Source: Chlorobiota bacterium
Lineage (GTDB): Bacteria; Bacteroidota; Ignavibacteria; OLB7
Assembly (NCBI GenBank): GCA_021296135.1
Contig: JAGWAZ010000002.1
Coordinates: forward strand, 1,060-65,059
Length of the DNA stretch: 64,000 nucleotides
Reading direction: 5' to 3'
Positions 8,826-25,815 of this stretch are shown here, in pieces. The notes beneath the pieces are model-generated. The model was not told the origin of the DNA, did not search any database, and saw only the letters and a list, made by a program, of their open reading frames with translations. Each line of letters begins with the position of its first letter. Position 1 is the stretch's first letter. The translations under genes were made by a program, and so were the position numbers.

Positions 8826-9264
8826 GGATGACAAAATCCCTATGCGCTGTCTGAAGAACGAAGGAAGAGCAGAGAATACCTGATTGACTCGAAAGATGCA
8901 GTCATGGATCTTCTGGAGATGGAGTCGATGCTCGATCTGTTCAGCAAAGCTGACAGCCTTGCAGGATATTTCGCCAATTAGCGGGTATCTCTTCTTTCTC
9001 GTTATTATCTCTGGGTTTGTAATACGAAGTCAGCAGTTGATTGAGGAGCTTGGAAGAGAAGCGCGTGCTGAAAATGGTGACTGGGTGCTAATTCATCGTG
9101 ACAGACCAATAGAAGTTTCGAAAGCCTGAACAGAAAAGTGAAAAATTTTCTGTTCGGCCTTATCCTGTTCCTTATCTTTCAATTTGACAAGATCAGGACT
9201 CTTTGTCCGATGTCTTGTCTTTATTCTTAAAGACAAAACCACCATTTACTTTACAAACGGGCGT

Positions 9265-10476
9265 ATGGTCAATGGCTATGACGCCAGGAGTTTATCGTTG
9301 ACATCATTGAATAAAACCGTCATTGCTCCGGGTCCGAAAGTCGGATCACGTTACAACGGAACAAGCAAGGTCCCGATGGCCAAACTGGTTGAGGATTACA
9401 TCCATGGTCGCATTGACATCAAAGGGGATTTTCGGGATTTTATCGGTACTCGAACAGACTATGTCACCTATAAGTTGGTCGCCGATCACGTCAAGTTCTT
9501 CCTGACGCGGTTTATCCCTGAAGTCACAATCCACTCGAAGAAACAAGATGAACGTATCGTCCAAGATCATTATGATCGAGGCAACGATTTCTTCAACTGG
9601 TTTCTTGGTCCGCGTATGGTCTATACCAGCGCCTTCTTCACCGACCTCAATCAGGATCTTGAAACTGCTCAGGATCAAAAGATGAAACTGGTGTGCGACA
9701 AGCTACAGTTAAAGAGGAGTGAGACCCTGCTCGATATCGGATGTGGTTGGGGAACGCTTGTTCTGTATGCTGCTCGAGAAAGGGACGCTGATGCTACGGG
9801 CATTACGATCGCTGAAGAAGGAGCAGCGTACGCGACAGAGCAGATCGCTGAGGCTGGATACAGTGATTCGGCCCGCATTCTTCGCATGGACTATCGCGAT
9901 ATCCCTCACAAGAAATACAACAAGATTTCCTGCCTCGAGATGGCCGAACATGTCGGAGTCAAGTACTTCAGCAGGTTCATGAGACAGATCTATTCGATGC
10001 TTGAGGATGACGGACTCTTCTACTTACAGATCGCAGGCCTGAAAGCAGGAGTACATATGGAAAGTCTCGTATGGGGTCTCTTCATGAACAAGTATATCTT
10101 CTCCGGCGCTGATGCAAGTATGCCTCTGAGTTTTGTTGTCAAGAATCTGGAGAAGGCTGGTTTTGAAATTCATTCGGTCGAAAATATCGGTATTCACTAC
10201 TCGATTACCATTGACCGTTGGTATGATAACTGGATGCGGAACAAGGAGGCTATTGAAAAAAAGTATGGTCAGTTCTGGTTCCGACTCTGGCAAGTCTTCC
10301 TCGGTTGGTCAGTTCATATTGCCGCTCAAGGTAACTCAACCTGCTTCCAGATTGTCTGCAACAAGAACCTTGAGACATATAACCGAAAACGTTTCGTCGG
10401 TGAGATCGGTATGGGTGAACGATTGAATGAGTCAAGTAACAATATCCCGACCGAAATGCCTGCTGCGGTGGAGTAG
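9265..10476 (+). CDS. SAM-dependent lipid methyltransferase of the Cfa superfamily, sphingolipid C9-methyltransferase-like
   Basis: HYDRGNDFF-WFLGPRMVYTS, LLDIGCGWG, CLEMAEHVG, LVWGLFMNKYIFSGADASMPL. ATG 9265 preferred over TTG 9184. Confidence 0.85.
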   Translation: MVNGYDARSLSLTSLNKTVIAPGPKVGSRYNGTSKVPMAKLVEDYIHGRIDIKGDFRDFIGTRTDYVTYKLVADHVKFFLTRFIPEVTIHSKKQDERIVQDHYDRGNDFFNWFLGPRMVYTSAFFTDLNQDLETAQDQKMKLVCDKLQLKRSETLLDIGCGWGTLVLYAARERDADATGITIAEEGAAYATEQIAEAGYSDSARILRMDYRDIPHKKYNKISCLEMAEHVGVKYFSRFMRQIYSMLEDDGLFYLQIAGLKAGVHMESLVWGLFMNKYIFSGADASMPLSFVVKNLEKAGFEIHSVENIGIHYSITIDRWYDNWMRNKEAIEKKYGQFWFRLWQVFLGWSVHIAAQGNSTCFQIVCNKNLETYNRKRFVGEIGMGERLNESSNNIPTEMPAAVE

Positions 10477-10645
10477 GAATCATTTCTGGTCGAGGGGTAA
10501 TTTCGCAGGATCACGGATGAACATTAAGTATAGAGGATAGCAAGGGCATTCTCCGGAGTGCTCTTGTTTTTCTGTGACATGCAGCAAGCTATGGCCGGAT
10601 ATCACGGTCCCATTTTGGTCGCAATTGAACTATCGAACTACACCT

Positions 10646-12859
10646 TTATTCCTTCAACAACCTTACCATCTCATCTACATCATTTGTTGGCAGCTTGCAT
10701 ACATAATTCTCACACACATAGACTGTCGGTTTGCCGTCGATCATTGCTATGCTCTCAATGAATTCAAGATGCTCCGCTAATGCTTCCTGTCCAGCTCCTC
10801 CGTCAGTAAACAAGATGATTCTGTTCGGTAAGAAGAGAGACCAGACTGCTTGAAGCATTGATTCAGTCTCTCGATCATTCTGTTTCCCTGCGATCACAAT
10901 CTGCTTCGGTTTATCGAATGCAAAGTTAACGGCTGCAAGGAGTTGAGGTGATGCTGCAGGTGCTCGTTCAAGATCAGATCCAAAAATTTGGAAGATTCTC
11001 TCAGCAGTTGAACGATACTCTTCATTATCGGTCATCTCCCCCAGCCGCAACAGGTTCATCACTGAAACAGAATTCGGTGATGGCTCTGCTCCATCATAGC
11101 TATCCTTCATTCGCAGCAGTATTGTGGAGTCATTCCCTGTAGTTTCGTAATACCCGCCATTCTCCTTATCAAGAAAAAGTCGATTTTGTTGTTCCTGTAG
11201 GTTGATTGCCCAGATCAGTAACGAGACATCGAACGAAGCTTCATAGAGGTCGAGTAATCCCTGAATCAAAAAAGCATAGTCGTCAGCATAGGCAGCAATC
11301 GCAGATTCACCGTCACGGTATCGCCTGAGGAGCTCCCTTGTCTTCTTGTTGTATAGATGATCTCGAACGAAGGCCGCTGCCTGTTCTGCTGCTTCGAGAT
11401 ACCGGACGTCGCCAAGAGTCTGATATGCCTGAGCAAAGGCGGAGATCATCAGACCATTCCATGCGGTGATTGTCTTGTCATCGAGATGCGGACGCGGGCG
11501 TTCCTTTCGGACGTTGTAAAGCTTTGCGCGGGCTTCGGCAAGAGTGTGTTCTATCTCTTCAGGTGACTGATCGAACTTCTTCGCCGTCTCCTCAATAGTA
11601 TGAGCTACGTACAGAACGTTCTTTTGAGGAAACTCTACGAAGGGGTCATTGCGCACATTACCTTTCGGTTCAACTCCAAAGTAATCATTGAAGATTTGAC
11701 TTGCCTCCTTCCCGAGGATTTCTTCGATTTCGCTTTCTTCCCAAACGTAGAATGCTCCTTCTCCTTGCTCCTCAGGGTTTTCGGGCAGTGGACTGTCGGC
11801 ATCTTCGGCAGAGAAAAACTGCCCTTCTCCTCCAGTCATATTACGTAATACATAGTCAAGTACATCTCGTGCCACTCGTTCAAACTCAGGATCATGTGTG
11901 ATGCGATAGGCCTCAAGGTAACTGATGGCAATCTGTGCCTGGTCGTATAACATCTTCTCGAAGTGGGGGACGTGCCAGCGTTCATCAACAGAATAGCGAT
12001 GGAATCCTCCCCCTATATGATCATACATTCCTCCAGAAGCCATCTTTCGCAGAGTTGTAAGGGCCATGTCGGTCGCCCTCTGCTCGCCATTGCTATGGCC
12101 GTAGCGGAACAGAAAATTTAATGTCACCGGTCGGGGAAACTTCGGTGCGGTGCCAAAGCCACCGTTAACCGGATCAAATCGTCCGGCTATTTGTTGATAG
12201 CTTCTGCTGAGAAGACTTTCGTCAATTACCAAACTGAAGGTCTGACGAGCATTGACCATTTCGCGAAGGCCGTTTAACGTAGCATTACCTTGGTCGATGA
12301 TTTCGTCACGCTTGGTCTGCCATAGCTCGGTAATTTTGGTAAGGATATTTTTGAATCCCAGCCGTCCGCCTCGATCCTCCGGTGGAAAGTACGTACCTCC
12401 GATGAACGGCTTCAGATCAGGCGTGAGCCAGACACTAAGTGGCCAACCACCCCCACCGGTTGTTGCCTGCACAAACGTCATATAGACGTTATCAACATCC
12501 GGGCGCTCTTCGCGGTCAACTTTAACTGCTATGTAATGTTGGTTGAGAATGGCTGCCACTTCTTCGCTTTCGAACGATTCGCGTTCCATCACATGGCACC
12601 AGTGACAGGTCGAGTAGCCAATAGAGAGAAAGATCGGCTTGTCTTCGCTCCTGGCTTTCTCAAATGCCTCCTCACTCCAAGGATACCAGTCGACCGGGTT
12701 ATGAGCATGTTGTTGGAGATAGGGGGACTTCTCGTTGATCAATCTATTTGTATGAGCATGTTCGGTCTCCTTCCTTTCCTGTCCGTTTGATGAACAGGAT
12801 GGAAGAAGCAGGAATACAAACAGAAGGAAGCAATGTAATGTAGCTCTGAGATTTTTCAT
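10646..12859 (-). CDS. YyaL/SSP411 thioredoxin-domain + (alpha/alpha)6-barrel protein with lipoprotein signal
   Basis: [45 protein letters not shown]; lipobox LPSC. Confidence 0.93.
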
Positions 12860-13127
12860 GAAGTTAAACTCTTAGCATTAAGGATTCAGTCTGGTGGTTT
12901 TGGGTGCGCTAGCGCCAATCTTCCAAAGCCAGTAGTGGAGTTCAGCACGCTGATTCTGTAATAGTTATGCGATCTTTCATTACACGGGTGATGTCGAATG
13001 ACAATACAAAAGCGACCCAACAACAATGCCTGGTTCACAGTCTATTAACTACTAACCTACCGAAAAAGAAAGACTGTATTATCGGGCAGTGCGTTACAGG
13101 GTGGACTGAAGTTCATTGCAAGCTCAG

Positions 13128-13799
13128 TCAGGGAATCATAGGCTCTAACGCCCCATTACGGCTTGTGGAATAGCGTTCTTCTTCTGAAAGACGTTCGCTA
13201 ACGAGCCTCCAGATAATGCTATGAATCTCATCAACACTTTTTCCACCGTCAATAACATAGTAACGTCCCGAATTCATATTGGCTATGCGCATGTATCCAC
13301 GGATAACTCGTTTAAAAAACGTGATGCCAGCCTCTTCCATTCGATCTTGTACGATGCCTTCACGTCCGTCGGTCCTTTCAAGTGCCGTCTCCGGCGATAT
13401 ATCCAGATAGAATGTCATATCAGGTTCGGTCTCCTGCGTTGCAATCCGATTGATATGAACAATATCATTCAAAGGCAATCCTCTTCCGTAACCTTGATAG
13501 GCAATAGTAGAATCGGAAAAACGGTCACAAATCACGATCTTTCCTTTATGAAGCGAGGGAAGAATCACCTCGGCAACAAGCTGGGCGCGACTTGCTGAAA
13601 AAAGGAGCAGTTCTGTCCGTTCATTAATTTCTGAGTATTCTTTGTTGAGGAGTATCCCCCGGATGTGTTCGGAAAGGCGAGTGTTACCCGGTTCGCGGAG
13701 TTCGACAATATTGTGGTTGGCTTCTTGAAGTTTATTGGCCAGAAGTTGCGCCTGCGTAGATTTGCCACTGCAGTCAATGCCTTCGAATGTTATGAACAT
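13128..13799 (-). CDS. tmk: Thymidylate kinase
   Basis: FITFEGIDCSGKST, REPG, DRFSDSTIAYQGYGRG. Confidence 0.97.
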   Translation of the reverse strand: MFITFEGIDCSGKSTQAQLLANKLQEANHNIVELREPGNTRLSEHIRGILLNKEYSEINERTELLLFSASRAQLVAEVILPSLHKGKIVICDRFSDSTIAYQGYGRGLPLNDIVHINRIATQETEPDMTFYLDISPETALERTDGREGIVQDRMEEAGITFFKRVIRGYMRIANMNSGRYYVIDGGKSVDEIHSIIWRLVSERLSEEERYSTSRNGALEPMIP

Positions 13800-13974
13800 A
13801 CGCGCTCCTTGGAAAGATTTGTGATCGTAGAGAACATGTGCTGGAGATTGTTGCCGATTGTCGTCACTGACGACGTTGTCAACAATGAATGGCTATACAG
13901 ATAAGATGCCAGGTTCAGCATTTCCTCAAAATAGAGTTCAACGAAGTCAAAGTCAATAACCTTTTACGTTTTTT

Positions 13975-14751
13975 ATGATTGAAGCCCTGAAATTCTTTTT
14001 CTCGAACAATGCTAAATCTTCGTTTCCTGGTAACCTGATTGTTATACTCCTGCTATACACTGGTTGTGCCGGTTCAGGTCAGTCGAATGACTCATTGAAA
14101 AGCACGGCAATTACACTTGAGTCGATTGAAGGGAATAACGATACGATACGATTTCATATTGGCTCTCCACTTTTTCTCCGGATGAACATTAATACCAGGT
14201 TGGCCTGCGAGGCTTTTAACGGTCACCCCTTCTTTTTTGATGAAAAAGGCGTTCAGATTGGATGGGGATTTGAAGAAGTACAAGATACACTGGTTTTAGG
14301 GGGAGAAGAGGGATCTTGTGAAAGGTTTTTAATGCTTACTTCTGAATCCTCGAATTTGTTGGCAGAAGGCTACTACCCAATGTCGGTTGCCCTCCTAATC
14401 GACGAAAAATCCGAGCTTCGTTCCGATACTATTGTTCTTCATCCCGTTCATGCCTCTGGAGCGGATGAACGGTCGTACAGCAGATTTATTATCGAGCAAA
14501 TTATCTCGCGTTCGCCATTGCTGGACGATCCTGTCACGTTAAGGGAGCTTTTTGCCTCTCATCTCCCGCAAAGCTTTGCTTCAGACGTCTACAAAGCCGT
14601 GATTTTTTACCGAGGTGGGGATATGTTCGGAGCCGAAGAGGCTCTGACCGAAGCCGAGAAAAAGATGATGACACCTGTCGGAGAACTTTCCGTGAGCGCG
14701 CGCCGACTCTATAATGAGCTTAAACGCAGGATTTCCGATGATACAAAGTAA
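13975..14751 (+). CDS. Hypothetical lipoprotein
   Basis: 258-aa ORF with a hydrophobic stretch and lipobox-like LLLYTGC; no family recognised. Confidence 0.65.
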   Translation: MIEALKFFFSNNAKSSFPGNLIVILLLYTGCAGSGQSNDSLKSTAITLESIEGNNDTIRFHIGSPLFLRMNINTRLACEAFNGHPFFFDEKGVQIGWGFEEVQDTLVLGGEEGSCERFLMLTSESSNLLAEGYYPMSVALLIDEKSELRSDTIVLHPVHASGADERSYSRFIIEQIISRSPLLDDPVTLRELFASHLPQSFASDVYKAVIFYRGGDMFGAEEALTEAEKKMMTPVGELSVSARRLYNELKRRISDDTK

Positions 14752-15013
14752 AATAATTTTCTTTAGACAAGTTCTTGGCCTAAATCGCCGAAAACGGTTA
14801 GGTTCGCACGTTCTTTGTATCAGATGGCGATGACATGACATAGAAATAGGGGGTGGAAAACGTGATAAGGTATCATTACTGCAGTGCACTTTTGGAAGAA
14901 AATCTGTGGATCATAGACCTGATTGAGCACAACATTATGCAGGTGTCAATCGTCGTTAAACGCTATGAAGAGAAGAAATTCTACCATTTCGATAACATCC
15001 AGAAGAGGTTTAT

Positions 15014-15880
15014 TTGGTGCGTATCACAAAACAGTATACAAATCGAGAGAGTCAGTCGCTTGATCGGTACCTGCACGAAATTGGCAAGGTTGAGTTGCTT
15101 ACGCCGGACATGGAGATTGAGCTGGCAAAGCGAATCAAGCGTGGCGGCGCTGAAGGAGAGCATGCACTCGAAGCTCTCGTCAAGGCAAATCTTCGATTTG
15201 TGGTCTCGGTCGCAAAACAGTATCAGAATCAGGGTCTTTCACTCGGTGACTTGATTAATGAGGGGAATCTTGGTCTTATCAAAGCCGCAAAACGATTTGA
15301 TGAGACGCGTGGCTTCAAATTCATCTCCTATGCTGTTTGGTGGATTCGGCAGTCGATCCTGCAGGCTCTTGCCGAGCAGTCGCGTATTGTTCGTCTGCCG
15401 TTGAATCGAGTTGGGGCATTGAACAAAATTGGGAAGAAGTTTAGTGAGCTTGAGCAAAAGTATGAGCGCGCACCTACTGCTTCCGAGATTGGGGCAGAGC
15501 TTGAGATGTCCATGAACGAGGTGACCGAGACAATCAAGATCTCGGGTCGTCATCTTTCGGTCGATGCTCCATTTGCTCAAGGTGAAGATAATCGTCTCTT
15601 GGACGTGCTTACCAACGATGCACAGCCGTCTCCAGATCATGGGCTGATGAGTGAATCGTTGAAGATCGAAGTCCGCCGTGCTCTTTCGACCCTTTCAGAA
15701 CGTGAGGCGGAAGTGATTCGTTTTTACTTCGGTCTCGATCGCGAACACTCTCTGACTCTTGAGGAGATCGGTGAACGCTTTAACCTGACTCGCGAACGCG
15801 TTCGTCAGATTAAAGAAAAAGCAATTCGTCGTCTGAGACACACGTCTCGTTCAAAGGCTCTGAGAGCATATCTCGGTTAA
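15014..15880 (+). CDS. rpoD: Primary RNA polymerase sigma factor, short Bacteroidota-type lacking region 1.1
   Basis: [18 protein letters not shown]-terminus, [31 protein letters not shown]...[12 protein letters not shown]. Confidence 0.95.
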
Positions 15881-15900
15881 TCAATGGAGAAACGTTTGCA

Positions 15901-15932
15901 AAGAAAGCCCCGGTTACGACCGGGGCTTTCTT
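15901..15932 (+). terminator. Intrinsic terminator after rpoD
   Basis: 14-bp perfect stem AAGAAAGCCCCGGT/ACCGGGGCTTTCTT closed by a UACG loop. Confidence 0.85.
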
Positions 15933-15957
15933 CATCTACAACCTCCGATCAGTAGCG

Positions 15958-16956
15958 ATGCAATCCCTTCTGACCGATTTTAGAATCAATGAACTCGTTA
16001 GTAGTATGGAGAGATGCCATATTGCTATCGTTGGCGATGTAATGCTCGACCGCTATTACCGGGGGACAGCCTCGCGACTCTCTCCGGAAGCCCCTGTACC
16101 TGTAGTAGAGATCGTTGAAGAATCGGAGCATCTGGGGGGAGGGGCGAACGTTGCTTACAACCTTTCTTCTCTTGGCGTGCAGGCCTCAATTTTTGGCGTT
16201 GTCGGGGATGATCGTTCGGGTGAGCATCTCCGTCTCCTTTTGGAAGGATTGGGTATTGAGAGCAGCGGACTCATTGTGCAACGGGGCCGAACCACGACAG
16301 TCAAAACGCGAGTGATTGCCGATGGCCAGCATATCGTCCGTGCTGATCAGGAGACGAAAGAGAGGATCGGCTCACAGGTGCAGAAGAACTTGCTGGCCTC
16401 TCTCAATGAAAAGATTGAACAGCTCGACGGGCTCATCCTTCAGGACTATAATAAAGGGGTCTTCTCTCCTGAAGTTATTGAACAAATTCTTAGCCTTGCG
16501 CTGGCTCACAACATTCCGACGTTTGTTGATCCTAAGTTCGAGAACTTCTTTGCCTTTAAGGCGTCTACCCTCTTCAAGCCAAATAGAAAAGAGACAGAGG
16601 ATGCACTACAGTGTCGTCTCACTACGCTTGATGACAAGCTTAAGGCCGCACATGAGTTGAAGAGCCGTCTCCGTAGTCGCTATGTAGTTCTAACGCTCGG
16701 TAGCGATGGAATGATTCTTGTCGGTAGTGATGACGATCCTGTCCTCGTTCCAACACGTTCGATTCAAGTCGCAGATATCTCAGGCGCAGGCGATACTGTA
16801 ATTGCAATATTGGCAGCAGCTTCTTCTGTCGGAGCAACTATGCGAGAGGCTGTTGAGCTTGCGAACCATGCAGCCGGTATTGTCTGTGAACAAGTCGGCA
16901 CTGTCCCGGTTACGCGGCAGATGTTAGTCACCATGGGATCGAACGTTCATGCCTGA
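15958..16956 (+). CDS. rfaE1: D-glycero-beta-D-manno-heptose-7-phosphate kinase (HldE N-terminal domain, PfkB family)
   Basis: VGDVMLDRY, RLSPEAPVPVV, GGGANVA, DYNKG, DISGAGDTV. Confidence 0.93.
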   Translation: MQSLLTDFRINELVSSMERCHIAIVGDVMLDRYYRGTASRLSPEAPVPVVEIVEESEHLGGGANVAYNLSSLGVQASIFGVVGDDRSGEHLRLLLEGLGIESSGLIVQRGRTTTVKTRVIADGQHIVRADQETKERIGSQVQKNLLASLNEKIEQLDGLILQDYNKGVFSPEVIEQILSLALAHNIPTFVDPKFENFFAFKASTLFKPNRKETEDALQCRLTTLDDKLKAAHELKSRLRSRYVVLTLGSDGMILVGSDDDPVLVPTRSIQVADISGAGDTVIAILAAASSVGATMREAVELANHAAGIVCEQVGTVPVTRQMLVTMGSNVHA

Positions 16957-16962
16957 TGTCCA

Positions 16963-17484
16963 ATGACAAGCAACCGGCAAATCGCAGATCGGATTCTTGA
17001 CCAATCGCAGCTTCAACAGGAGTGTCAGCTTATACGAGAGCAAGGGCAACGTATCGTCTTTACGAACGGTTGCTTTGATATCCTTCATCTTGGGCATGTC
17101 ACCTATCTTCAACAAGCTGCTTTGCTTGGGGACAAATTGATTGTCGGATTGAATTCAGATGAATCGGTACGGCGATTAAAAGGGGAAGGGCGACCGATTC
17201 TACCTCAAGCAGAGCGCGCAACTCTTCTTGCAGCCTTACGTTCAGTCGATTATGTCTCTTTTTTTGAACAGGATACTCCGCTTGCTCTGATCGAGACGAT
17301 CCGTCCTGACCTGCTCGTAAAGGGTGGAGATTACAATACGGATGCAACCGAAGGACCTGAGTATATTGTCGGGAGTGACATCCTCCATTCGTATGGCGGT
17401 CAGGTAAAGGTCATCAATCTGGTTGAGGGGGGTTCAACTACAAATATCATCGAAGCTGTTCTGAAAGCTCAAAAGAGGCTTTAG
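16963..17484 (+). CDS. rfaE2: Heptose-1-phosphate adenylyltransferase (HldE C-terminal domain)
   Basis: FTNGCFDILHLGH, GLNSDESVRRLKG, KGGDY, STTNII. Confidence 0.95.
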   Translation: MTSNRQIADRILDQSQLQQECQLIREQGQRIVFTNGCFDILHLGHVTYLQQAALLGDKLIVGLNSDESVRRLKGEGRPILPQAERATLLAALRSVDYVSFFEQDTPLALIETIRPDLLVKGGDYNTDATEGPEYIVGSDILHSYGGQVKVINLVEGGSTTNIIEAVLKAQKRL

Positions 17485-17686
17485 TATTCATTTTACATCG
17501 GGATGAAACCAATGCTTACCTTATGCGCCTGAGAGAGTTAGAGTTCATAGAGTATGCCAGGAATAAGGCAAGAGTTGAAGAGGGGGGAAGAATGGTTGAT
17601 TAGTTGGATAGTGAAATAGTTAGAGGGGATGTAAGAGTACCGTTTCCTCGCTACACACTACCAAAGCATGATATAGCACACGAAGG

Positions 17687-20600
17687 ATGCAACAGAAGAT
17701 ATATAGAGCTGCGAAGGTATTGGCAAAGCTTGGCGTTCTGATGATCGCTCTGCTTTCGTTCCTTGGTGCTTTTGCTGTTGCAATGACTCAATATTCACCT
17801 TTCAGGAAATGGGCAATAGATCAAGGACTTGATGCTGCCAACAAAGCCTTGGCCGGAAATCTCTCAGTCGAAGAGATTGAAGGAAATTTCCTGACCGGGT
17901 TAACAATCAAAAATGCCTACTTGAACGCAGCCGATACCCCCCTTGCCGTTATTCCTCGGATTTCGTTGCAGTATCATCTCATTCCATTCTTTGAAGCCAA
18001 GACCATCCAGGCCTCGGTTATCTTTCACAACCCTGAACTCTATTTGCATAGGGATCAGGATGGTATCTGGAATTTTACACAGATTGCGCAACCCCCTGAG
18101 GAAGAAGAGGATAAACCTCGCCAGCCATTGGAATGGATCTTTGATATTCAAAACCTTGAAATCAGAGATGGCGTCGTCGAGTTCAATGACGAGACAACTC
18201 TACCATTCAACTCTGAGAACAACCGATTGAACTTGCTGGGTTCGCGACTTTACCGTTTCAATCTTGCACTCGGCGGATGGATTTCTGAGACGGAGCAGCA
18301 GATCGATGTAGAGCATCTCTCATTCTTGATTGACGATGTAGATCTGAGCCTTGTCGAGCTGTCCGCGGGAATTGCTGTAGACGACAAAGGGCTTCACATA
18401 GATGGTCTTCATATCGAAACCGAAAGAAGTTACCTCGAGTTGAATCTCTCAATCGACTCCGTCGATATCTTTGACTCGACACTGGCTACATCGTGGAGAG
18501 GATATCCATTCAGTGTGAGGATGAGTGGCAAACGAGTCGATACCCGTGAACTGATCACTCTCCTGCCATCGCTTGGTTTCCTTGGTGGAGTTATCGGCGT
18601 TGACCTTGAGGCTTCGGGGGTCTTTTCCGATATCCTTGTTAATCGTGTTGATCTTGAACTGGAACGGTCCCGACTGACTGGAAAAGCTCGCTTACGAGAT
18701 ATTGATAACTCTGTTCGTTCTCGCATTGATGCTGAATTTACCGACTCACGTCTTTTCTACAGTGATGCCTCCGTTCACATTCCTGGCATTTCGATTCCTG
18801 ATCTGAGCTATCTCGCAGAAGTAGAGGTTGAGAAGTTGACCTACTCGGGAACCTCGCGGGATTTTGTTTCTCTCTTTGATCTTTCTTCTGCAGTTGGTCG
18901 AATCAGGGGTGGAGGAGGAATGAACTTTAGTGATTTTCCCGTCTGGAGAGTTGATGCTGTAGTTGAGGAAGTTAATCCCGGGCCACTTCTTGGATCGGAT
19001 GAATATGAAGGAAAGGTCTCAGCACGATTGGTTGCTGAAGGGCAAGGGTTTACGCCGGAGGCAATGTCGTCGCGGTTCCGGCTGATTGGTGGTTCCTCGC
19101 AAGTAGGGCCTCGGACTATCGAGCGACTATGGGTAGATGGTTCGTTCGGTAATGGCGGAATCCTGTCGCTCGATACAGCCATGATTGCGTGGGGAAATGA
19201 GACTCAGTCCTACATCCCGGAAATGATTGGGCTAGATCCCCTTGAACAGCTTCTTCAGGATCAGAGAATCCAACCAATGACCGGTAGCTTCGCGGAACGT
19301 CTTGTGTTCTCCGAAGCTGATGCGGCTGTCATCGATGGTCTTCCATCACTTCGCGCAAGCGGTTGGTATGATGTGAGGGAGTCTGGGCTTCCTAAATACA
19401 GGGGAGCGGTTGAGACGGACAGACTCAACCTGGCCGACATTACTCTTAACCCCGAGCATGAAACAGAACTCGGGCTGACGTTGGTTGTTGAAGGGATTGG
19501 ACTTGAACCCGATCTGATGGACGGAACCGCCCGGCTTCGTGTGACCGATGCAGTGCTTCCCAGCGGAGTCGCGCTTCGACCATTTGGTGTTGATGTCACT
19601 CTACATCGCAATGAAAATGAACGACATCTCGCGTTGAACTCTGATTTTCTTGATGCCCGGGTAGAGGGAATCTGGAGATTTGAGTCTCTTCTTCCGGCGC
19701 TTACCGGTGGATTCAAGAAGTTGGTTAACTATATCTCACGTAAAGGGACATATAGTTCCGATGAGTTCGATTTTATCCTCGCAGATGATTTTGAGATAGA
19801 GCCGATCCTTGTTGAGTATGAGTTTATGCCAAGAGACCTTTCACTACTCAAAGCATTTATTCAGGGAACGACAATTCAGATGGATGCATCATTAAAGGGA
19901 ACAATCACAGGAACCTCGCAGCTTCTGGGCATTACTGCGCGGGGTGAGATAAATGAGTTTAACTATGAGAATGGAGATCAGGATGTCAAGTTTGGGGGGA
20001 CTACTGTCGACGCAGAGATCTGGAACATCAGCTCCGGTTCAATGGATGATCTTCTCGATGCTGAAATTGCTCTGCGTAGTGACTCCCTGATATATGTGAA
20101 TGATCTGAGAATTGCTTTACCCCACCTTGATCTCTCTTTCAGGGATGGGTTGTTGACTGCGAATGGCGCAACCATGATTGATAATACATACTCGGTCGCT
20201 CTTGATGGGAAAATTGATGTGTTGGATGATAGAGGGTATGCAGTTGCAATGGATACCTTGATTGTCGGTTGGTCCCGTGGCTTGAAGTGGCGAAATATCG
20301 ATCCGGTAAGATTTGTTCTTGCAGATGAGAAGGTCGACATTGAATCGTTCCGTCTTGTTCGTGAGGGGGCGGAGCTCATTTCAATAACCGGAGAGTTTCT
20401 TGACTATAACCGATTTGATGAGCTGCGTGTATCAGTTACTGGCACATCGCTTGAAGCTCTTCAACCTTTTATTGTTGATCCTAAAACACTGGAGATGCTT
20501 GAAACGCTCTCCGGAAGCTTGCAAGACCTTGATGTAGTTGTGAATGGAACACTTGATGCTCCGAAAATCAAGGGACATCTGAATGTAGATGGACTAAAGT

Positions 20601-22426
20601 ATACTAACATACAGATAGGGGATCTGGAACTTGATATTGACTATCGGGATCAGAATCTTACTGGAAAGGTTCGTATCCTGCGTCCTCTTACAATCGATGC
20701 TCTTTCCAATGTCTCCCTGGCGACAGTGAAGATAGAGTCGTTCCCCATCGATCTGGCAATGGCCTCGCGAGATGAGCGGATTATTACCGGAAAACCTGTT
20801 CTGATTACGGCCCAGACCAAGGAATTGCCACTCGCAATTGTTGGACCGTTTACTCCAAGCCTTGTTATCCAAAGGGGGACTGCCAACCTGGACTTTACCC
20901 TGAAAGGCAGCTATCCAAGGCTGACCTATTCGGGTAATGGGAGAATCAATGATGGTATAATGACAGTGGAGACAACAAACATCTCCTACATAGCCAACGG
21001 GAAGTTTGAATTCCGTGAGAACAGAGTTGACATTACAGGTGTTGTTCTGAACAATCTTCCCAGCGATTATCCGAGGGGAGTGGCACGAGCAAATGGTAGC
21101 ATCCGTTTTGATGGATTTATCCCTGAACTGTTTGATGTTAACATCCGTACGGGAGATGAAGGTCTTCTTGTCCTGAGTGATGCAACACAGACTGTAAACG
21201 ATGCTTACTACGGTGACCTTGTGGTAGCAACCCAAGAGAATATCCTTCACTTTGGTGGGTCGTATGCTGAACCAACCTTGACCGGCGAAATCGTGGTTCT
21301 CAACAGCAGCCTGAAGTATCCCTATCGGGAAACGTCTGCTGCATTCGTTGATCACGTTGAGTTCACTGAATATGATGAATGGGTATCTCAAAGAGAAAAA
21401 CAGTACGGACCAATTCTCTCTGATGAGCAACTCAAAGAGAATGAAATAAAGGCTCCCGATGAATTGAAAGGAGCAGATGCAGATTCGATCCAGCCGGATG
21501 GACTTGCAAAGACAGTCGACCAGATGCAACGGCAGTCAGACGCCGGAATATCGAAACCGATCCCACGAGGAACCTTTGCCGACAGACTACGGACAGACCT
21601 TCGTATCTCGCTCGAGAGTGGAGCAACGATCATTGTTGAGATCGGACCGCTCCAGGAACTCCGCCTAAATCTTGTCAACGATGGATTGCCCCTTGATTTC
21701 AAGATGAAAGGACGTGATATGTCGTTGCGAGGAACAGTTCGTCTTGTTGAGGGATCGAAGTTTATCTACTTAAAGACATTCGATGCGCGAGGAACCGTCA
21801 GTTTTGAGGAGGATATAGAGAATCCCTCGTTTGATATCAGCGGTGTATGCCAAGGGCGTCACACTAGTACCAACGAATCGTTTACTGTCACTGCTCGATT
21901 GACCGGGACGCGGGAGAAACCTGAGCTCGACTTTTCCTATTCGATTGGAGGTGTTACCGCGGTTGATGATAAAGAGCGTGTGCTTGCTAATGCAAGTGCG
22001 CTTCTGTTGACCGGACGGAGAATTTCAGAGGTTGAAGGGGGAGCAATTGGAGTTCTTTTTGAGAATGCGCTCCAGGATTTTTCAAGCGCTGCTGTAAGCG
22101 TTCTGTTAGATGACATTTTCAGTGATTTTGGCGTTGATATTAACCTCGGCAACTCAGTTGATCCGGCTGAAGCAGAAGTCAACGTTGTTCGCCAGCTTAG
22201 CGAAATTCTTTTCAGATATGATGCCAAAGTCAGATCACCGGAAAGCGGTACCATTTCAATAGAAATCCCGATCTCAGTTCTGATTGATCCCATCAAATTG
22301 AACAATCTTGTCCTTGAGCTTCAGCGTGAAGTGCTTGATAAGTTTGAAAGTGGAGGGACAGGTCCCACCACTACCGAGGGAGAAGACATCTTTCGGCTTC
22401 GTATCGGTCTGAAGGAGACATGGTAA
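17687..22426 (+). CDS. tamB: TamB/AsmA-like envelope-spanning protein
   Basis: 1579 aa; N-terminal TM anchor; GNFLTGLTI, WNF and repeated beta-taco-like motifs; C-terminal LTGTREKPEL (DUF490-like). Confidence 0.75.
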   Translation: MQQKIYRAAKVLAKLGVLMIALLSFLGAFAVAMTQYSPFRKWAIDQGLDAANKALAGNLSVEEIEGNFLTGLTIKNAYLNAADTPLAVIPRISLQYHLIPFFEAKTIQASVIFHNPELYLHRDQDGIWNFTQIAQPPEEEEDKPRQPLEWIFDIQNLEIRDGVVEFNDETTLPFNSENNRLNLLGSRLYRFNLALGGWISETEQQIDVEHLSFLIDDVDLSLVELSAGIAVDDKGLHIDGLHIETERSYLELNLSIDSVDIFDSTLATSWRGYPFSVRMSGKRVDTRELITLLPSLGFLGGVIGVDLEASGVFSDILVNRVDLELERSRLTGKARLRDIDNSVRSRIDAEFTDSRLFYSDASVHIPGISIPDLSYLAEVEVEKLTYSGTSRDFVSLFDLSSAVGRIRGGGGMNFSDFPVWRVDAVVEEVNPGPLLGSDEYEGKVSARLVAEGQGFTPEAMSSRFRLIGGSSQVGPRTIERLWVDGSFGNGGILSLDTAMIAWGNETQSYIPEMIGLDPLEQLLQDQRIQPMTGSFAERLVFSEADAAVIDGLPSLRASGWYDVRESGLPKYRGAVETDRLNLADITLNPEHETELGLTLVVEGIGLEPDLMDGTARLRVTDAVLPSGVALRPFGVDVTLHRNENERHLALNSDFLDARVEGIWRFESLLPALTGGFKKLVNYISRKGTYSSDEFDFILADDFEIEPILVEYEFMPRDLSLLKAFIQGTTIQMDASLKGTITGTSQLLGITARGEINEFNYENGDQDVKFGGTTVDAEIWNISSGSMDDLLDAEIALRSDSLIYVNDLRIALPHLDLSFRDGLLTANGATMIDNTYSVALDGKIDVLDDRGYAVAMDTLIVGWSRGLKWRNIDPVRFVLADEKVDIESFRLVREGAELISITGEFLDYNRFDELRVSVTGTSLEALQPFIVDPKTLEMLETLSGSLQDLDVVVNGTLDAPKIKGHLNVDGLKYTNIQIGDLELDIDYRDQNLTGKVRILRPLTIDALSNVSLATVKIESFPIDLAMASRDERIITGKPVLITAQTKELPLAIVGPFTPSLVIQRGTANLDFTLKGSYPRLTYSGNGRINDGIMTVETTNISYIANGKFEFRENRVDITGVVLNNLPSDYPRGVARANGSIRFDGFIPELFDVNIRTGDEGLLVLSDATQTVNDAYYGDLVVATQENILHFGGSYAEPTLTGEIVVLNSSLKYPYRETSAAFVDHVEFTEYDEWVSQREKQYGPILSDEQLKENEIKAPDELKGADADSIQPDGLAKTVDQMQRQSDAGISKPIPRGTFADRLRTDLRISLESGATIIVEIGPLQELRLNLVNDGLPLDFKMKGRDMSLRGTVRLVEGSKFIYLKTFDARGTVSFEEDIENPSFDISGVCQGRHTSTNESFTVTARLTGTREKPELDFSYSIGGVTAVDDKERVLANASALLLTGRRISEVEGGAIGVLFENALQDFSSAAVSVLLDDIFSDFGVDINLGNSVDPAEAEVNVVRQLSEILFRYDAKVRSPESGTISIEIPISVLIDPIKLNNLVLELQREVLDKFESGGTGPTTTEGEDIFRLRIGLKETW

Positions 22427-22561
22427 GCCTTAACATCCTCTCTGCCTTCTCTGAAACTCGTTCATCTACTCTGTTTCGTGATCACAGTTAAGCCCTCCGT
22501 ATCTTTCCGGAGATATGAGCCGTGACGAACGGGAACGCCTTCACGAATTCAAAAAGTCTTT

Positions 22562-23695
22562 ATGAGTCTTTCAGTATATCCTGCTCGCTCATCTTCAGAG
22601 CGAAAACAGTTCATTACAATGGTCTGGGATCTGTATCAGGACGATCCAAACTGGGTTCCGCCATTGATTGCCGATCGCAAGAAGCTCCTCAACGCGGAGA
22701 AAAATCCGTTCTGGAGACATGCTGATATGGAGATGTTTCTTGCAAAACAGGACGGAAAAATTGTCGGACGAATTGCGGCTATTATCAACTGGGCGCACAA
22801 CCAGATCCATGAGGACAAAGTTGGGTTTTTTGGCTTTTTTGAGTCAGAAAACAAGGTTTCAACGGCTCATTCTCTCTTTGGAGCAGCAGCAGAATGGCTG
22901 GCCGAACGTGATATAGAGGTGATGCGTGGGCCTGTCAATCCCTCAATCAATGATGAGGTCGGGTTGCTTGTTGATGGCTTCAACGATCCACCACAAATCC
23001 TTATGAATTATAATCCGGAATATTACAGTGCTTTAATCGAATCATATGGTCTTACAAAGGTCAAAGACCTATATGCTTGGAGACTGACACCCGATTTCCT
23101 TTCCCCGAAGCTTAACCGTGTACAGGAAGCTGTCCGTAAACGTGAGAATCTGAAGGTTAGAACCTTTCGGTTCAGCCCAAAATCGGCCTTCAAAGAGGAT
23201 ATCGAGATTCTTAGAGAGATATACAACAGAGCCTGGGAACCGAATTGGGGAGCGGTAAAAATGAATCGTGACGAGTTTAATGCGCTGGCAACCGATCTAA
23301 AACAGATGGCTGCAAAGGACCTTGTGTTGCTCGTTGAAGCAAACGCTCAACCAATCGGCTTTGCTTTGGCATTACCCGATATTAATCAGGCGTTGATACG
23401 TAACAGGAAAGGGGGAATGATTGGCGCTCTCTGGCATCTTGTAACAGGAAAGAAGCGTATAAAAAGGGGAAGAATCATTGTTTTGGGGGTTGCACCTGAG
23501 TTCCAACGGCGTGGGATAGATGGGGCACTCTATTATGAAATCGGCACTCGTATGGTACATAACCATGGTTATGTCGAAGCCGAGGCTTCCTGGGTTCTGG
23601 ATGACAACGAAATGATGAATCGGGCCGCAAAGATGTTGAAAGGCGAAATCTATAAGACCTACCGTTTGTACGACAAAACAATTAAAGAGAATTAA
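22562..23695 (+). CDS. Tandem-GNAT acyltransferase, bacterial ceramide synthase (bCerS)-like
   Basis: LYQDDPNWVPPL, NPFWRHA, VGRIAAII, GFFGFFES, GLLVDGF-PP-MNYNP-YY, EASWVLDDN. Confidence 0.78.
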   Translation: MSLSVYPARSSSERKQFITMVWDLYQDDPNWVPPLIADRKKLLNAEKNPFWRHADMEMFLAKQDGKIVGRIAAIINWAHNQIHEDKVGFFGFFESENKVSTAHSLFGAAAEWLAERDIEVMRGPVNPSINDEVGLLVDGFNDPPQILMNYNPEYYSALIESYGLTKVKDLYAWRLTPDFLSPKLNRVQEAVRKRENLKVRTFRFSPKSAFKEDIEILREIYNRAWEPNWGAVKMNRDEFNALATDLKQMAAKDLVLLVEANAQPIGFALALPDINQALIRNRKGGMIGALWHLVTGKKRIKRGRIIVLGVAPEFQRRGIDGALYYEIGTRMVHNHGYVEAEASWVLDDNEMMNRAAKMLKGEIYKTYRLYDKTIKEN

Positions 23696-23793
23696 GTCTC
23701 CACATAACACGTTCGGCACACTTTTCGCCGTCATGGAGGACAATGATTGTAAGCAATAACACTCTCACGTGATTTGAGAGATTTTCTTTCGGA

Positions 23794-24789
23794 GTGGTAA
23801 GTCGAATTCGAATAATGTTGAAGGCAGATTTGAGTATTCTGTTGAAATATGCTGCAGCTCGTCGAACCCGGATATGGGCCTTGATCGTTGCTGGAGCTAT
23901 CGGAATGTTTGCTTTTTCAGCCGATATGTTGCTGACAGCCGGAGCGGCTCCAGGCACGGATGAAGAAGAGACTCCGATTACACCCGAAATATCCGTCGAT
24001 CTCGATTCGCTTTATTCGGCCAAAGCAAGTGAAGATGAAACGGCCGATAGTAGCTACGTCGAGATTCTGGAACCACGGCATACAATTGAGGGGCATGTCA
24101 GTTGGTACGGCGGCAGATTTCATGGTCGCAAGACAGCTAATGGTGAGCGATTTGACATGAACAAGATGACTGCTGCACACAAAAAGCTCCCCTTCAATAC
24201 AATTGTCCGAGTGGTAGATACCAGAACTGGCAAGGCAGTGCTCGTGCGGATCAACGATCGTGGCCCTTACATCAGAGGTCGCGTCCTCGATCTTTCGCGC
24301 GAGGCAGCTTCACGTCTTGGTATGAAAGGGCGTGGTACCACCAGTGGACGTCTCGAGATGTTTAACGATGAAGAAAGAACTCTTCAGGTTGGAGACGAAG
24401 AACACGTTCTTCGGTTTGTGACCTTTGATAGGGACGTCAATGGAGCAAAGCCTAACGGTTGGTCAGTGATGGTTATTGAGGCAGAGAGTTTTGATGAAGC
24501 TGTCAAAACACATAACGGGCTCACCGATGAGTATGACAAGGTCTTTCTGACACGAGTGATTGAAAATGGCGACACGCTCTGGAGAGTTTCAGTTGGACTC
24601 TACGATGAAGATCGCCTTTCACGTGGCCTGCATCTGGAACTTGTTGAAAACTATACCGACGCCGTAGTCATACAGTTTCAGGACGGATTTCCAGAGATAC
24701 CCGCTCTCAGCAATGATGTAGCGGTAGAAGAGCTTAGCGAGGGAGAAAGTATAGCTAGCAGTCCGTTGAAAAAGTCGGAGAGTGAGTAG
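23794..24789 (+). CDS. rlpA: Septal ring lytic transglycosylase RlpA (DPBB domain + SPOR-like C-terminus)
   Basis: SWYGGRFHGRKTANGE, TAAHKKLPF, VRINDRGPY-GRVLDLS; C-terminal WRVSVG. Start may be ATG 23815. Confidence 0.92.
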   Translation: MVSRIRIMLKADLSILLKYAAARRTRIWALIVAGAIGMFAFSADMLLTAGAAPGTDEEETPITPEISVDLDSLYSAKASEDETADSSYVEILEPRHTIEGHVSWYGGRFHGRKTANGERFDMNKMTAAHKKLPFNTIVRVVDTRTGKAVLVRINDRGPYIRGRVLDLSREAASRLGMKGRGTTSGRLEMFNDEERTLQVGDEEHVLRFVTFDRDVNGAKPNGWSVMVIEAESFDEAVKTHNGLTDEYDKVFLTRVIENGDTLWRVSVGLYDEDRLSRGLHLELVENYTDAVVIQFQDGFPEIPALSNDVAVEELSEGESIASSPLKKSESE

Positions 24790-25010
24790 AGAATGCTTAG
24801 CGTAGCGTATAGTCCCTTTACGCATATCCGACCTGCCTGCAGCAGGCAGGCGCACAGAAGGAGTCCGTTGTATGTCGATGAGCAAGCGTCGAGAAAGTCA
24901 GCAGCAGCAGATGTGGGTGCAGACACAGGACCTGCCCGAGGCGCCGGGACATCCGTTTTATACCCAACTCAATACGCTGCTGGCATCGCATCGATTTGAT
25001 GCGTTTACGC
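24759..25010 (+). mobile_element. Truncated IS remnant (IS1182/IS5-like, DUF772-type transposase N-terminus) with left end only
   Basis: CAGTCCGTTGAAAAAG end-like motif directly after CTAG. ORF from 24872 reads QQQMWVQTQDLPEAPGHPFYTQLNTLL...FDAF and then loses transposase character. Confidence 0.72.
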
Positions 25011-25191
25011 CGGGGTCACAAGATTACTCTCGATGCAATCAGGCCATTGATGGCCTTGGCCTCAATCTACAGAGTCTCTTTCGGCGAATGAGAATCAAGA
25101 AGTAAGGTGGGCAAGGGAAAGATTGTAGGCTGATCTATTCCTTCGTAGTTTAAAAGTCATCGGAATGTAGAACGTTTGAGTTTGAGTAATA

Positions 25192-25815
25192 ATGCCACGT
25201 CGATTTGTTTCCAATCGAGATGAAACTGTGCGGATGTTCCAGAATGATTTCATGGAATTTTTTTCACATATTCATCCGTCAATACCTGTTGTCGTCTTTC
25301 TGCCAATCACGGTCTGGATAATTTGGTTGGCATCGTCAGTTAATGGTTTATCAATACTCTCAATTCTTGGCCTGTTTCTGCTCGGCCTCTTCTTCTGGAC
25401 GTTTATTGAATACATATTACATCGTTTTATCTTTCACTATGAACCGAAGACCAAGATCGGTAAACGTCTTCACTTTGTGCTCCATGGCGTCCATCATGAT
25501 TACCCCCAGGACTCAACACGACTGGTGATGACTCCTACCGTCAGTTTGCCATTGGCTGCATTCTTCTACGGCGTCTTCTGGCTGGCATTCGGTTCCGAAT
25601 ATGTCAACGGGATTTTTGCCGGAATGACCTTTGGCTATATGTGCTATGATCTCATTCACTATGCGGCACACCATTTCAAGATGAACAGAGGCATTGGAAA
25701 ATGGCTGCGACAGTATCATATGCGCCATCATTATCAGAATGAAACAGCCAAATATGGAGTAAGCGTTCCACTTTGGGATTACGTCTTTGGAACAGTCGAG
25801 AAAAGGAAAAAGTGA
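25192..25815 (+). CDS. Fatty acid hydroxylase/sterol desaturase family protein, Scs7/FA2H-like, without cytochrome b5 domain
   Basis: Histidine boxes HRFIFH, HGVHH, HYAAHH, HMRHH; D-RLVM-P and YGVS--LWDYVFGT. Confidence 0.9.
   Translation: MPRRFVSNRDETVRMFQNDFMEFFSHIHPSIPVVVFLPITVWIIWLASSVNGLSILSILGLFLLGLFFWTFIEYILHRFIFHYEPKTKIGKRLHFVLHGVHHDYPQDSTRLVMTPTVSLPLAAFFYGVFWLAFGSEYVNGIFAGMTFGYMCYDLIHYAAHHFKMNRGIGKWLRQYHMRHHYQNETAKYGVSVPLWDYVFGTVEKRKK

Follow-up and report, generated by a model that had tools for sequence, protein, structure and literature searches.

Does a bacterium decorate its ceramides in the manner of fungi? The question is raised by a 64,000-nucleotide stretch of the Chlorobiota bacterium assembly GCA_021296135.1 (contig JAGWAZ010000002.1, positions 1,060 to 65,059 of the forward strand; hereafter the window), in which a methyltransferase, a GNAT-family N-acyltransferase and a fatty acid hydroxylase, each resembling enzymes of sphingolipid metabolism, are encoded within about 17 kb. 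The route by which bacteria make sphingolipids has been elucidated only in recent years, and the enzymes known from it build the backbone; how bacteria diversify the chains is largely open. C9-methylated long-chain bases, which have been studied in connection with fungal growth and recognition, are regarded as a fungal hallmark. We find that the methyltransferase is the gene of interest at this locus: it is a rare bacterial sister of the fungal sphingolipid C9-methyltransferases and is paired with a specific membrane desaturase encoded elsewhere in the genome. The N-acyltransferase and the hydroxylase both belong, as ordinary representatives, to bacterial families already known.

An earlier interpretation made from the letters alone (the sequence-only reading) had placed three plus-strand sphingolipid-like genes at 9265, 22562 and 25192. 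All three open reading frames (ORFs) were found there on the plus strand, and the family resemblance of each was upheld when tested:

9265..10476, plus strand: S-adenosylmethionine (SAM)-dependent methyltransferase of the CMAS superfamily, 403 aa, no predicted membrane helix, sphingolipid C9-methyltransferase-like clade (PF02353, E 1.9e-66; tree and motifs)
22562..23695, plus strand: GNAT N-acyltransferase of the bCerS/YghO family, free copy, 377 aa (weak PF00583 match, E 1.3e-7; homology to YghO)
25192..25815, plus strand: protein of 207 aa with an FA2H/Scs7-type fatty acid 2-hydroxylase domain and no cytochrome b5 domain (PF04116, E 9.8e-21)

The methyltransferase could start at a TTG at 9184 or an ATG at 9265, of which the ATG matches the lengths of the orthologs.

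The methyltransferase belongs to the C9-methyltransferase clade

The close homologues of the methyltransferase are found in Kapabacteria/Ignavibacteria metagenome-assembled genomes (MAGs), at 62-87% identity, and in Archangium and Hyalangium, at 65-70%; several of them bear the automatic name 'sphingolipid C9-methyltransferase'. In an exhaustive search against representatives at 50% identity, the second-best cluster is that of a fungal protein from Coemansia (P0246, 505 aa; 50% identity, E 1.8e-119), whose family ranges from chytrids to ascomycetes and includes many UniRef rows named sphingolipid C(9)-methyltransferase. The identity of 50% to the fungal member extends over about 355 residues, as against 31-36% to proteins resembling cyclopropane fatty acid (CFA) synthases, and so close a match to the fungal enzymes speaks for ceramide as the substrate.

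Sequence searches against solved structures returned bacterial CFA synthases as the best matches (E 1e-51; E. coli Cfa, PDB identifier 6bqc, and 5z9o and 7qos). Identity as a CFA synthase was nevertheless rejected: on the corresponding NCBIfam models, whose cut-offs are 400-650 bits, the window protein reaches no more than 199-202, it carries Ser and Gln at the Cys and His positions of CFA synthases, and it falls in a separate clade. The Gln is present in 13/13 bacterial and 11/11 fungal rows of our motif table and the Ser in 12 of the 13 bacterial and 10 of the 11 fungal rows, while both Cys and His are retained in 13/17 CFA-synthase-like rows. The surrounding motifs follow the same division, reading YTSAFF and YLQIAG in the window protein, YTSG (one YTAG) and xQIAGL or xQVAGL in the 11 fungal rows, and YSCAYF and LLHxI in the CFA-synthase-like proteins. 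We take the Cys and His to be the bicarbonate ligands of cyclopropane synthases, and their replacement fits the addition of a methyl group without ring closure.

A tree of 51 rows, from which 5 aberrant rows had been excluded, resolves a C9-methyltransferase-like clade (37 rows) and a CFA-synthase-like clade (14 rows), each with an SH-aLRT support of 100. Within the former, a bacterial subclade of 12 rows (support 100) is sister to a eukaryote-like subclade. Database look-ups gave generic names only for the methyltransferase and its partner desaturase, and a limited literature search found no paper on a bacterial homologue of the C9-methyltransferase, which the supplements of earlier bCerS work may nonetheless list.

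A membrane desaturase accompanies the methyltransferase

Orthologs of the methyltransferase are present in 7 of 21 genomes of the class (a set that includes the window's own genome) and in only 4/300 sampled Bacteroidota. A collection of species genomes yielded 26 loci, distributed over nine Kapabacteria/Ignavibacteria-type MAGs, 11 genomes of Archangium/Vitiosangium/Myxococcaceae type, two Cyclobacteriaceae MAGs and four spirochaete MAGs. Cultured organisms among the carriers are Archangium gephyra, A. violaceum Cb vi76, A. minus Cbm 6 and Vitiosangium. The window's genome encodes two proteins of the FA_desaturase family, and one of them tracks the methyltransferase:

C75:393-1361 (L075), plus strand: FA_desaturase-family protein (PF00487), 322 aa, histidine boxes HNHNH, HNMNHH and HTVHH

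Desaturases of this type are present in six of the seven class relatives that carry the methyltransferase, the exception (G001) being 95% complete in 510 contigs, and also in five non-carriers. They recur in 25/26 carrier genomes of the collection at 44-89% identity. In the Bacteroidota sample they are found in 13/300 genomes, comprising 4/4 methyltransferase carriers and 9/296 others (Fisher p 2e-6, related genomes not being independent of one another). That methyltransferase carriers are nested within desaturase carriers fits an enzyme that requires the double bond made by the desaturase, and the co-occurrence appears to parallel the fungal logic of desaturating before methylating. What is newly seen here is the rarity of the bacterial methyltransferase and its travel with one membrane desaturase.

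The hydroxylase likewise accompanies the methyltransferase, being present in 25/26 carrier genomes, in 4/4 carriers of the Bacteroidota sample and in 12/13 desaturase carriers. The GNAT is also found in 25 of the 26 carrier genomes. Co-occurrence had been suggested by the sequence-only reading as a check on its proposal. The methyltransferase does co-occur with the desaturase and with the hydroxylase; the GNAT, which is present in 284/300 sampled Bacteroidota, is uninformative and was discarded as a marker. When five carrier genomes were searched with a model of Spt, each gave a match to an alpha-oxoamine synthase (AOS). The score is 381 bits in Turneriella and 482-673 bits in the others, among which Archangium minus and Vitiosangium have the AOS next to the GNAT.

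The spirochaete MAG carriers (G043-G046, L071-L074) have two to three copies each of the hydroxylase homologue and the C75-type desaturase; Turneriella, with its 381 bits, is the one of them that was run against the Spt model. A GNAT-desaturase cluster, suggested by a distance of about 4-5 kb in G235 and G010, was considered and rejected, as the genes in between are unrelated (gamma-glutamyltranspeptidase and a TPR protein in one of the two genomes, CinA and a Cys/Met pyridoxal phosphate enzyme in the other).

The window GNAT and the backbone genes

The window GNAT was compared by tblastn with annotated records of a plasmid collection and was found to be homologous over its full length to GNATs that lie inside clusters of spt-cerR type. 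It is 35.6% identical to E. coli YghO (97% coverage, E 6e-58) and 36.5% identical to a Streptomyces GNAT (E 3e-70). The neighbourhood of E. coli yghO comprises lptF/lptG paralogues, an AOS, an acyl carrier protein (ACP), a protein of the NAD-dependent epimerase/dehydratase family, a fatty acyl-AMP ligase and yghO itself, and the gene order in Streptomyces is AOS, GNAT and NAD-epimerase family. Homologues of the window GNAT number in the thousands and are named merely 'GNAT' or 'hypothetical' in the database searched; no relative was found among the sequences of solved structures and no matching model in NCBIfam.

The sequence-only reading had noted that Spt, CerR and desaturases are absent from the window, and had held that absence of Spt and CerR from the genome would refute its proposal. 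We find both in the same assembly, on contigs other than that of the window. Spt is encoded on contig C73 as part of a fusion protein:

C73:32705-35101 (L009:10703-13090), minus strand: Spt-like AOS fused to a bCerS-family GNAT, single ORF of 795 aa with a linker of about 30 residues (homology)

The best solved match of the Spt domain is the Sphingobacterium Spt (PDB identifier 3a2b, E 9e-113, versus 2e-72 for the best glycine C-acetyltransferase, Kbl), and its best NCBIfam model is that of the Spt of the Cytophaga-Flavobacterium-Bacteroides (CFB) group (NF047600), at 476.6 bits and under the strict cut-off of 640. The genome has one further close AOS, which is clearly a Kbl (703 bits, TIGR01822). 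The CerR candidate is encoded on contig C104 and is 32.7% and 29.4% identical to the reductases of the Streptomyces and E. coli clusters (E 3e-49 and 8e-37, respectively), the next-best protein of the genome reaching E 1e-10. Its orthologs (45-49% identity) divergently adjoin spt-GNAT in three relatives (G013, G014 and G019).

Across the class, an Spt ortholog is present in 21/21 genomes at 63-100% identity. The fusion is found in 14 of them, namely all 13 of the window's family and G017, as open frames of 796-947 aa, and in five of the seven unfused genomes spt lies directly upstream of the GNAT. That acylation follows straight after condensation, as in the bacterial order of steps, is independently supported by the fusion. 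A limited literature search found no paper on an Spt-GNAT fusion, which may already stand in the supplements of earlier bCerS work. Directly downstream of the fusion lie a 373-aa ORF without a Pfam or NCBIfam family (L009:9557-10678, minus strand), a molybdopterin oxidoreductase and then a c-type cytochrome. One in-frame TAA is present in the GNAT portion of the fusion (G010:C1:988924-990048) in G010, a complete relative on a single contig that has neither hydroxylase nor methyltransferase.

Apart from the window gene, the only member of this GNAT family encoded in the window's genome is the C-terminal half of the C73 protein, and the two are 44.6% identical over 368 residues. Each of the 13 genomes in the window's family retains the pair, the copies being about 45-53% identical to each other. 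In the window's genome the free copy is linked to neither spt nor cerR, while its orthologs in the tree are adjacent to spt in five sister genomes, with cerR alongside in three of these. In a GNAT tree of 40 rows, a clade of 20 rows (SH-aLRT 81; 98 for an inner clade of 15 rows) unites the five spt-adjacent GNATs with the window GNAT and the other free copies from its family, and the fused copies fall in a clade of their own. This grouping makes the window GNAT the ortholog of the bCerS-type enzyme encoded in the clusters, and the fused domain a derived paralogue. A third, divergent paralogue, 25-28% identical to the window GNAT and placed on long branches of the tree, is present in three genomes that lack the fusion:

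G014:C28:42191-43258: divergent GNAT paralogue
G016:C4:122478-123548: divergent GNAT paralogue
G020:C35:119010-120107: divergent GNAT paralogue

The FA2H/Scs7-type hydroxylase

Residues 31-201 of the window hydroxylase align to residues 200-370 of the yeast Scs7 structure (PDB identifier 4zr0, E 1.2e-32), and its boxes HRFIFH, HFVLHGVHH, HYAAHH and HMRHH line up with all four histidine boxes of Scs7; the protein also carries hydrophobic segments. Its 207 residues include no N-terminal cytochrome b5 domain or any other Pfam domain, and the electron donor must therefore be a separate protein. No NCBIfam model matched. Homologues are present in 17/21 class relatives and in 81/300 sampled Bacteroidota. 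Myxobacteria possess functional FA2H-like 2-hydroxylases tied to sphingolipid formation, as far as this is conveyed by a review (Ring et al. 2009, cited in PMC10002949), and a bacterial enzyme of this type is on that account already known. The genome encodes a second FA_hydroxylase on contig C116, which is OlsE-like.

Genomic context of the three genes

The assembly comprises 132 contigs with a total of 2.86 Mb, at 99.8% completeness, and the nearest database relatives are named as MAGs of Candidatus Kapaibacterium, Ignavibacteria and Chlorobiota. The three genes do not form one operon, as the sequence-only reading had correctly recognized. They are separated by unrelated genes, which encode a DUF255 thioredoxin, thymidylate kinase, a sigma-70 factor, a PfkB kinase with a cytidylyltransferase, a 1579-aa TamB and RlpA, and their proximity is kept only in the genus. 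The distance between methyltransferase and GNAT is 13 kb in the window and 39 kb in a genome of the same genus (G002), and elsewhere in the family, outside the genus, the three are dispersed over separate contigs or megabases apart (for example, G005). The segment GNAT-RlpA-hydroxylase is the sole part with kept spacing, and solely within the genus.

Among the intervening genes, a 258-aa ORF between the thymidylate kinase and sigma-70 genes (13975-14751, plus strand) has no Pfam or NCBIfam match. The PfkB-family kinase (332 aa) and the cytidylyltransferase-like protein (173 aa) are encoded by adjacent genes 6 bp apart (15958-17484, plus strand), a pair that appears to resemble a bifunctional heptose kinase/adenylyltransferase split in two. 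Three genomes of the same genus are listed at 4.4-4.7 Mb, a large size gap from the 2.86 Mb of this assembly.

Proposed pathway and its alternatives

Based on these similarities, we hypothesize that the three window genes, though separately transcribed, belong to one lipid pathway whose remaining genes are on other contigs. The backbone steps are suggested by homology and conserved clustering: the Spt-like domain would condense serine with an acyl thioester to 3-ketosphinganine, a bCerS-type GNAT, of which there are two copies (the Spt-fused one on C73 and the free one in the window), would N-acylate it, and the CerR-type reductase (C104) would then reduce the keto group. The substrates and the order of the decoration steps are likewise proposed. 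The Scs7/FA2H-type di-iron hydroxylase would add a 2-hydroxyl to the N-acyl chain, the membrane desaturase (C75) would put in a double bond, and the enzyme of the C9-methyltransferase clade would add a methyl group from SAM at that double bond, with no closure of a cyclopropane ring. The methylated chain is presumably the sphingoid base. The product would be a ceramide whose acyl chain is 2-hydroxylated and whose long-chain base is both unsaturated and methyl-branched, i.e., a bacterial counterpart of the ceramide of fungal glucosylceramide. A gene for every one of these steps is present in the genome, and on balance we consider it somewhat probable that the window genes and their partners outside the window make such a lipid. 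A fungal-like ceramide on a bacterial backbone, as put forward by the sequence-only reading, is supported in part, by the family assignments and by the presence of Spt, CerR and a co-occurring desaturase; the proximity of the three genes does not extend beyond the genus, and the GNAT is ordinary for the phylum.

We also consider a broader reading, which we advance tentatively and as possible rather than probable. Here, the desaturase, the soluble enzyme of the C9-methyltransferase clade and the FA2H-type hydroxylase would form a conserved decoration module in Kapabacteria/Ignavibacteria, the Archangium group, Cyclobacteriaceae and Leptospiraceae-like spirochaetes, one that makes the ceramide from Spt, bCerS and CerR methyl-branched, unsaturated and 2-hydroxylated, as is regarded as typical of fungi. 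From the position of the bacterial methyltransferases as sister to the eukaryotic ones, C9-methylation in fungi and bacteria would then share a single origin by transfer between domains.

Several observations weigh against these readings. The synteny of the three window genes is confined to the genus, with no genomic linkage beyond it; at none of the 26 loci is a pathway gene (spt, GNAT and cerR included) encoded within 6 kb of the methyltransferase, and no neighbour of the methyltransferase is conserved across phyla. Within the class, the methyltransferase (7/21) and the hydroxylase (17/21) are less widespread than Spt and the GNAT (21/21 each), which makes each decoration optional and independent of the other. 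The counts of carriers overlap, six of the 26 genomes being the same assemblies as G001-G006, and three of the four carriers in the phylum sample come from one family. Near-universality of the GNAT in the phylum makes its presence in carriers uninformative. The hydroxylase is found in 0/63 genomes of one large family that has the GNAT in 62/63, and is present in families whose best AOS scores no higher than about 350-360 bits against the Spt model; it is therefore not confined to clear Spt carriers. The C75 desaturase has no diagnostic family beyond PF00487 and cannot be recognized as a delta-8 desaturase of sphingolipids, and NCBIfam and solved-structure sequence searches gave no match for it. 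The N-terminal hydrophobic segment present in 6/6 fungal proteins checked is absent in the window methyltransferase and in the two bacterial orthologs checked. Finally, the likeness of the backbone enzymes to those of Caulobacter and Bacteroides fragilis (CCNA_01212 and BF9343_4218) was drawn from published descriptions and through the E. coli and Streptomyces clusters.

Some of these observations would be accounted for if the methyltransferase and desaturase acted on fatty acyl chains in glycerolipids or in other lipids of the membrane, giving mid-chain methyl- or methylene-branched acids, with the fungal resemblance reflecting shared chemistry and not a shared substrate. The bacterial methyltransferases, lacking the fungal membrane anchor, look soluble like the CFA synthases that act on phospholipid bilayers, these phospholipid enzymes are their best solved matches, they are unlinked to the backbone genes, and the partner desaturase is a generic PF00487 protein. 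We nonetheless judge this explanation unlikely, given the much higher identity of the methyltransferase to its fungal than to its CFA-synthase-like relatives, its place beside the eukaryote-like proteins in a fully supported group, and the AOS match to the Spt model in 5/5 carrier genomes tested. A different doubt concerns the window GNAT alone, in that the Spt-fused copy could be the working ceramide synthase and the free copy could use another acyl donor (for example, a 2-hydroxy acyl), act on another amine or salvage long-chain bases. Retention of two diverged copies throughout the family suggests divided work, and a fusion would channel the Spt product directly to its own GNAT domain; it is, however, the free copy and not the fused one that groups with the GNATs of the cerR|spt-GNAT clusters and so keeps the ancestral position, and its sequence shows no mark of degeneration. 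We regard such a division of roles as somewhat unlikely. It is quite improbable that the three genes are functionally unrelated housekeeping neighbours, with the hydroxylase serving amino lipids or the acyl chains of lipid A. The lack of an operon, the unrelated genes in between and the synteny limited to one genus would agree with this, as would the OlsE-like second FA_hydroxylase, from which it appears that the superfamily also serves amino lipids; yet each window gene maps independently to a sphingolipid-linked family or clade, the full backbone gene set is present in the genome, and methyltransferase, desaturase and hydroxylase co-occur across three phyla.

If bacteria do make the same decoration with a sister enzyme, the value of 9-methyl bases as markers in environmental lipidomics would change, the evolutionary origin of the fungal C9-methylation step would come into question, and cultured Archangium would offer a tractable bacterial system for the chemistry of the methyltransferase. 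The pairing of methyltransferase and desaturase is a specific and simply testable two-gene prediction, and cultured myxobacteria have the same genes.

Comparison with known systems

Among characterized enzymes, the CFA synthases (PDB identifiers 6bqc, 5z9o and 7qos) share the fold family of the window methyltransferase, from which they differ in the equivalog cut-offs that it fails to reach, in the Cys and His that it has replaced and in their clade. Yeast Scs7, mammalian FA2H and the myxobacterial FA2H-like enzymes have in common with the window hydroxylase the hydroxylase domain, the four histidine boxes and the hydrophobic segments, and the window protein differs from Scs7 and FA2H in lacking the cytochrome b5 domain.

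The bacterial ceramide pathway is represented by Spt, bCerS and CerR of Caulobacter (CCNA_01220, CCNA_01212 and CCNA_01222) and by BF9343_4218 and BF9343_4240 of B. fragilis, to the extent that the sources set it out (PMC11087976, PMC10865984, bioRxiv 10.1101/2023.05.23.541633). The same three enzyme families are found here. The cluster of spt, bCerS and cerR, joined in Proteobacteria by an ACP and a ligase, has, on those descriptions, the same make-up as the E. coli yghO and Streptomyces clusters. Relative to this arrangement, sister families of the window's family have a cerR|spt-GNAT cluster, and the window's family itself has Spt fused to a second GNAT, with the ancestral GNAT unlinked and no dedicated ACP or acyl ligase beside the fusion.

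The closest parallel to the methyltransferase is the fungal sphingolipid C9-methyltransferase (EC 2.1.1.317), the biochemistry of which was reportedly described by Ternes et al. in 2006. At the N-terminus, the bacterial proteins fall short of it by about 100 residues and have no hydrophobic segment, and their partner desaturase is not recognizable as a sphingolipid delta-8 enzyme. The bacterial and fungal methyltransferases fall in the same CMAS clade at about 50% identity, and the motifs YTS, CLEMAEHVG and xQIAGL are common to both.

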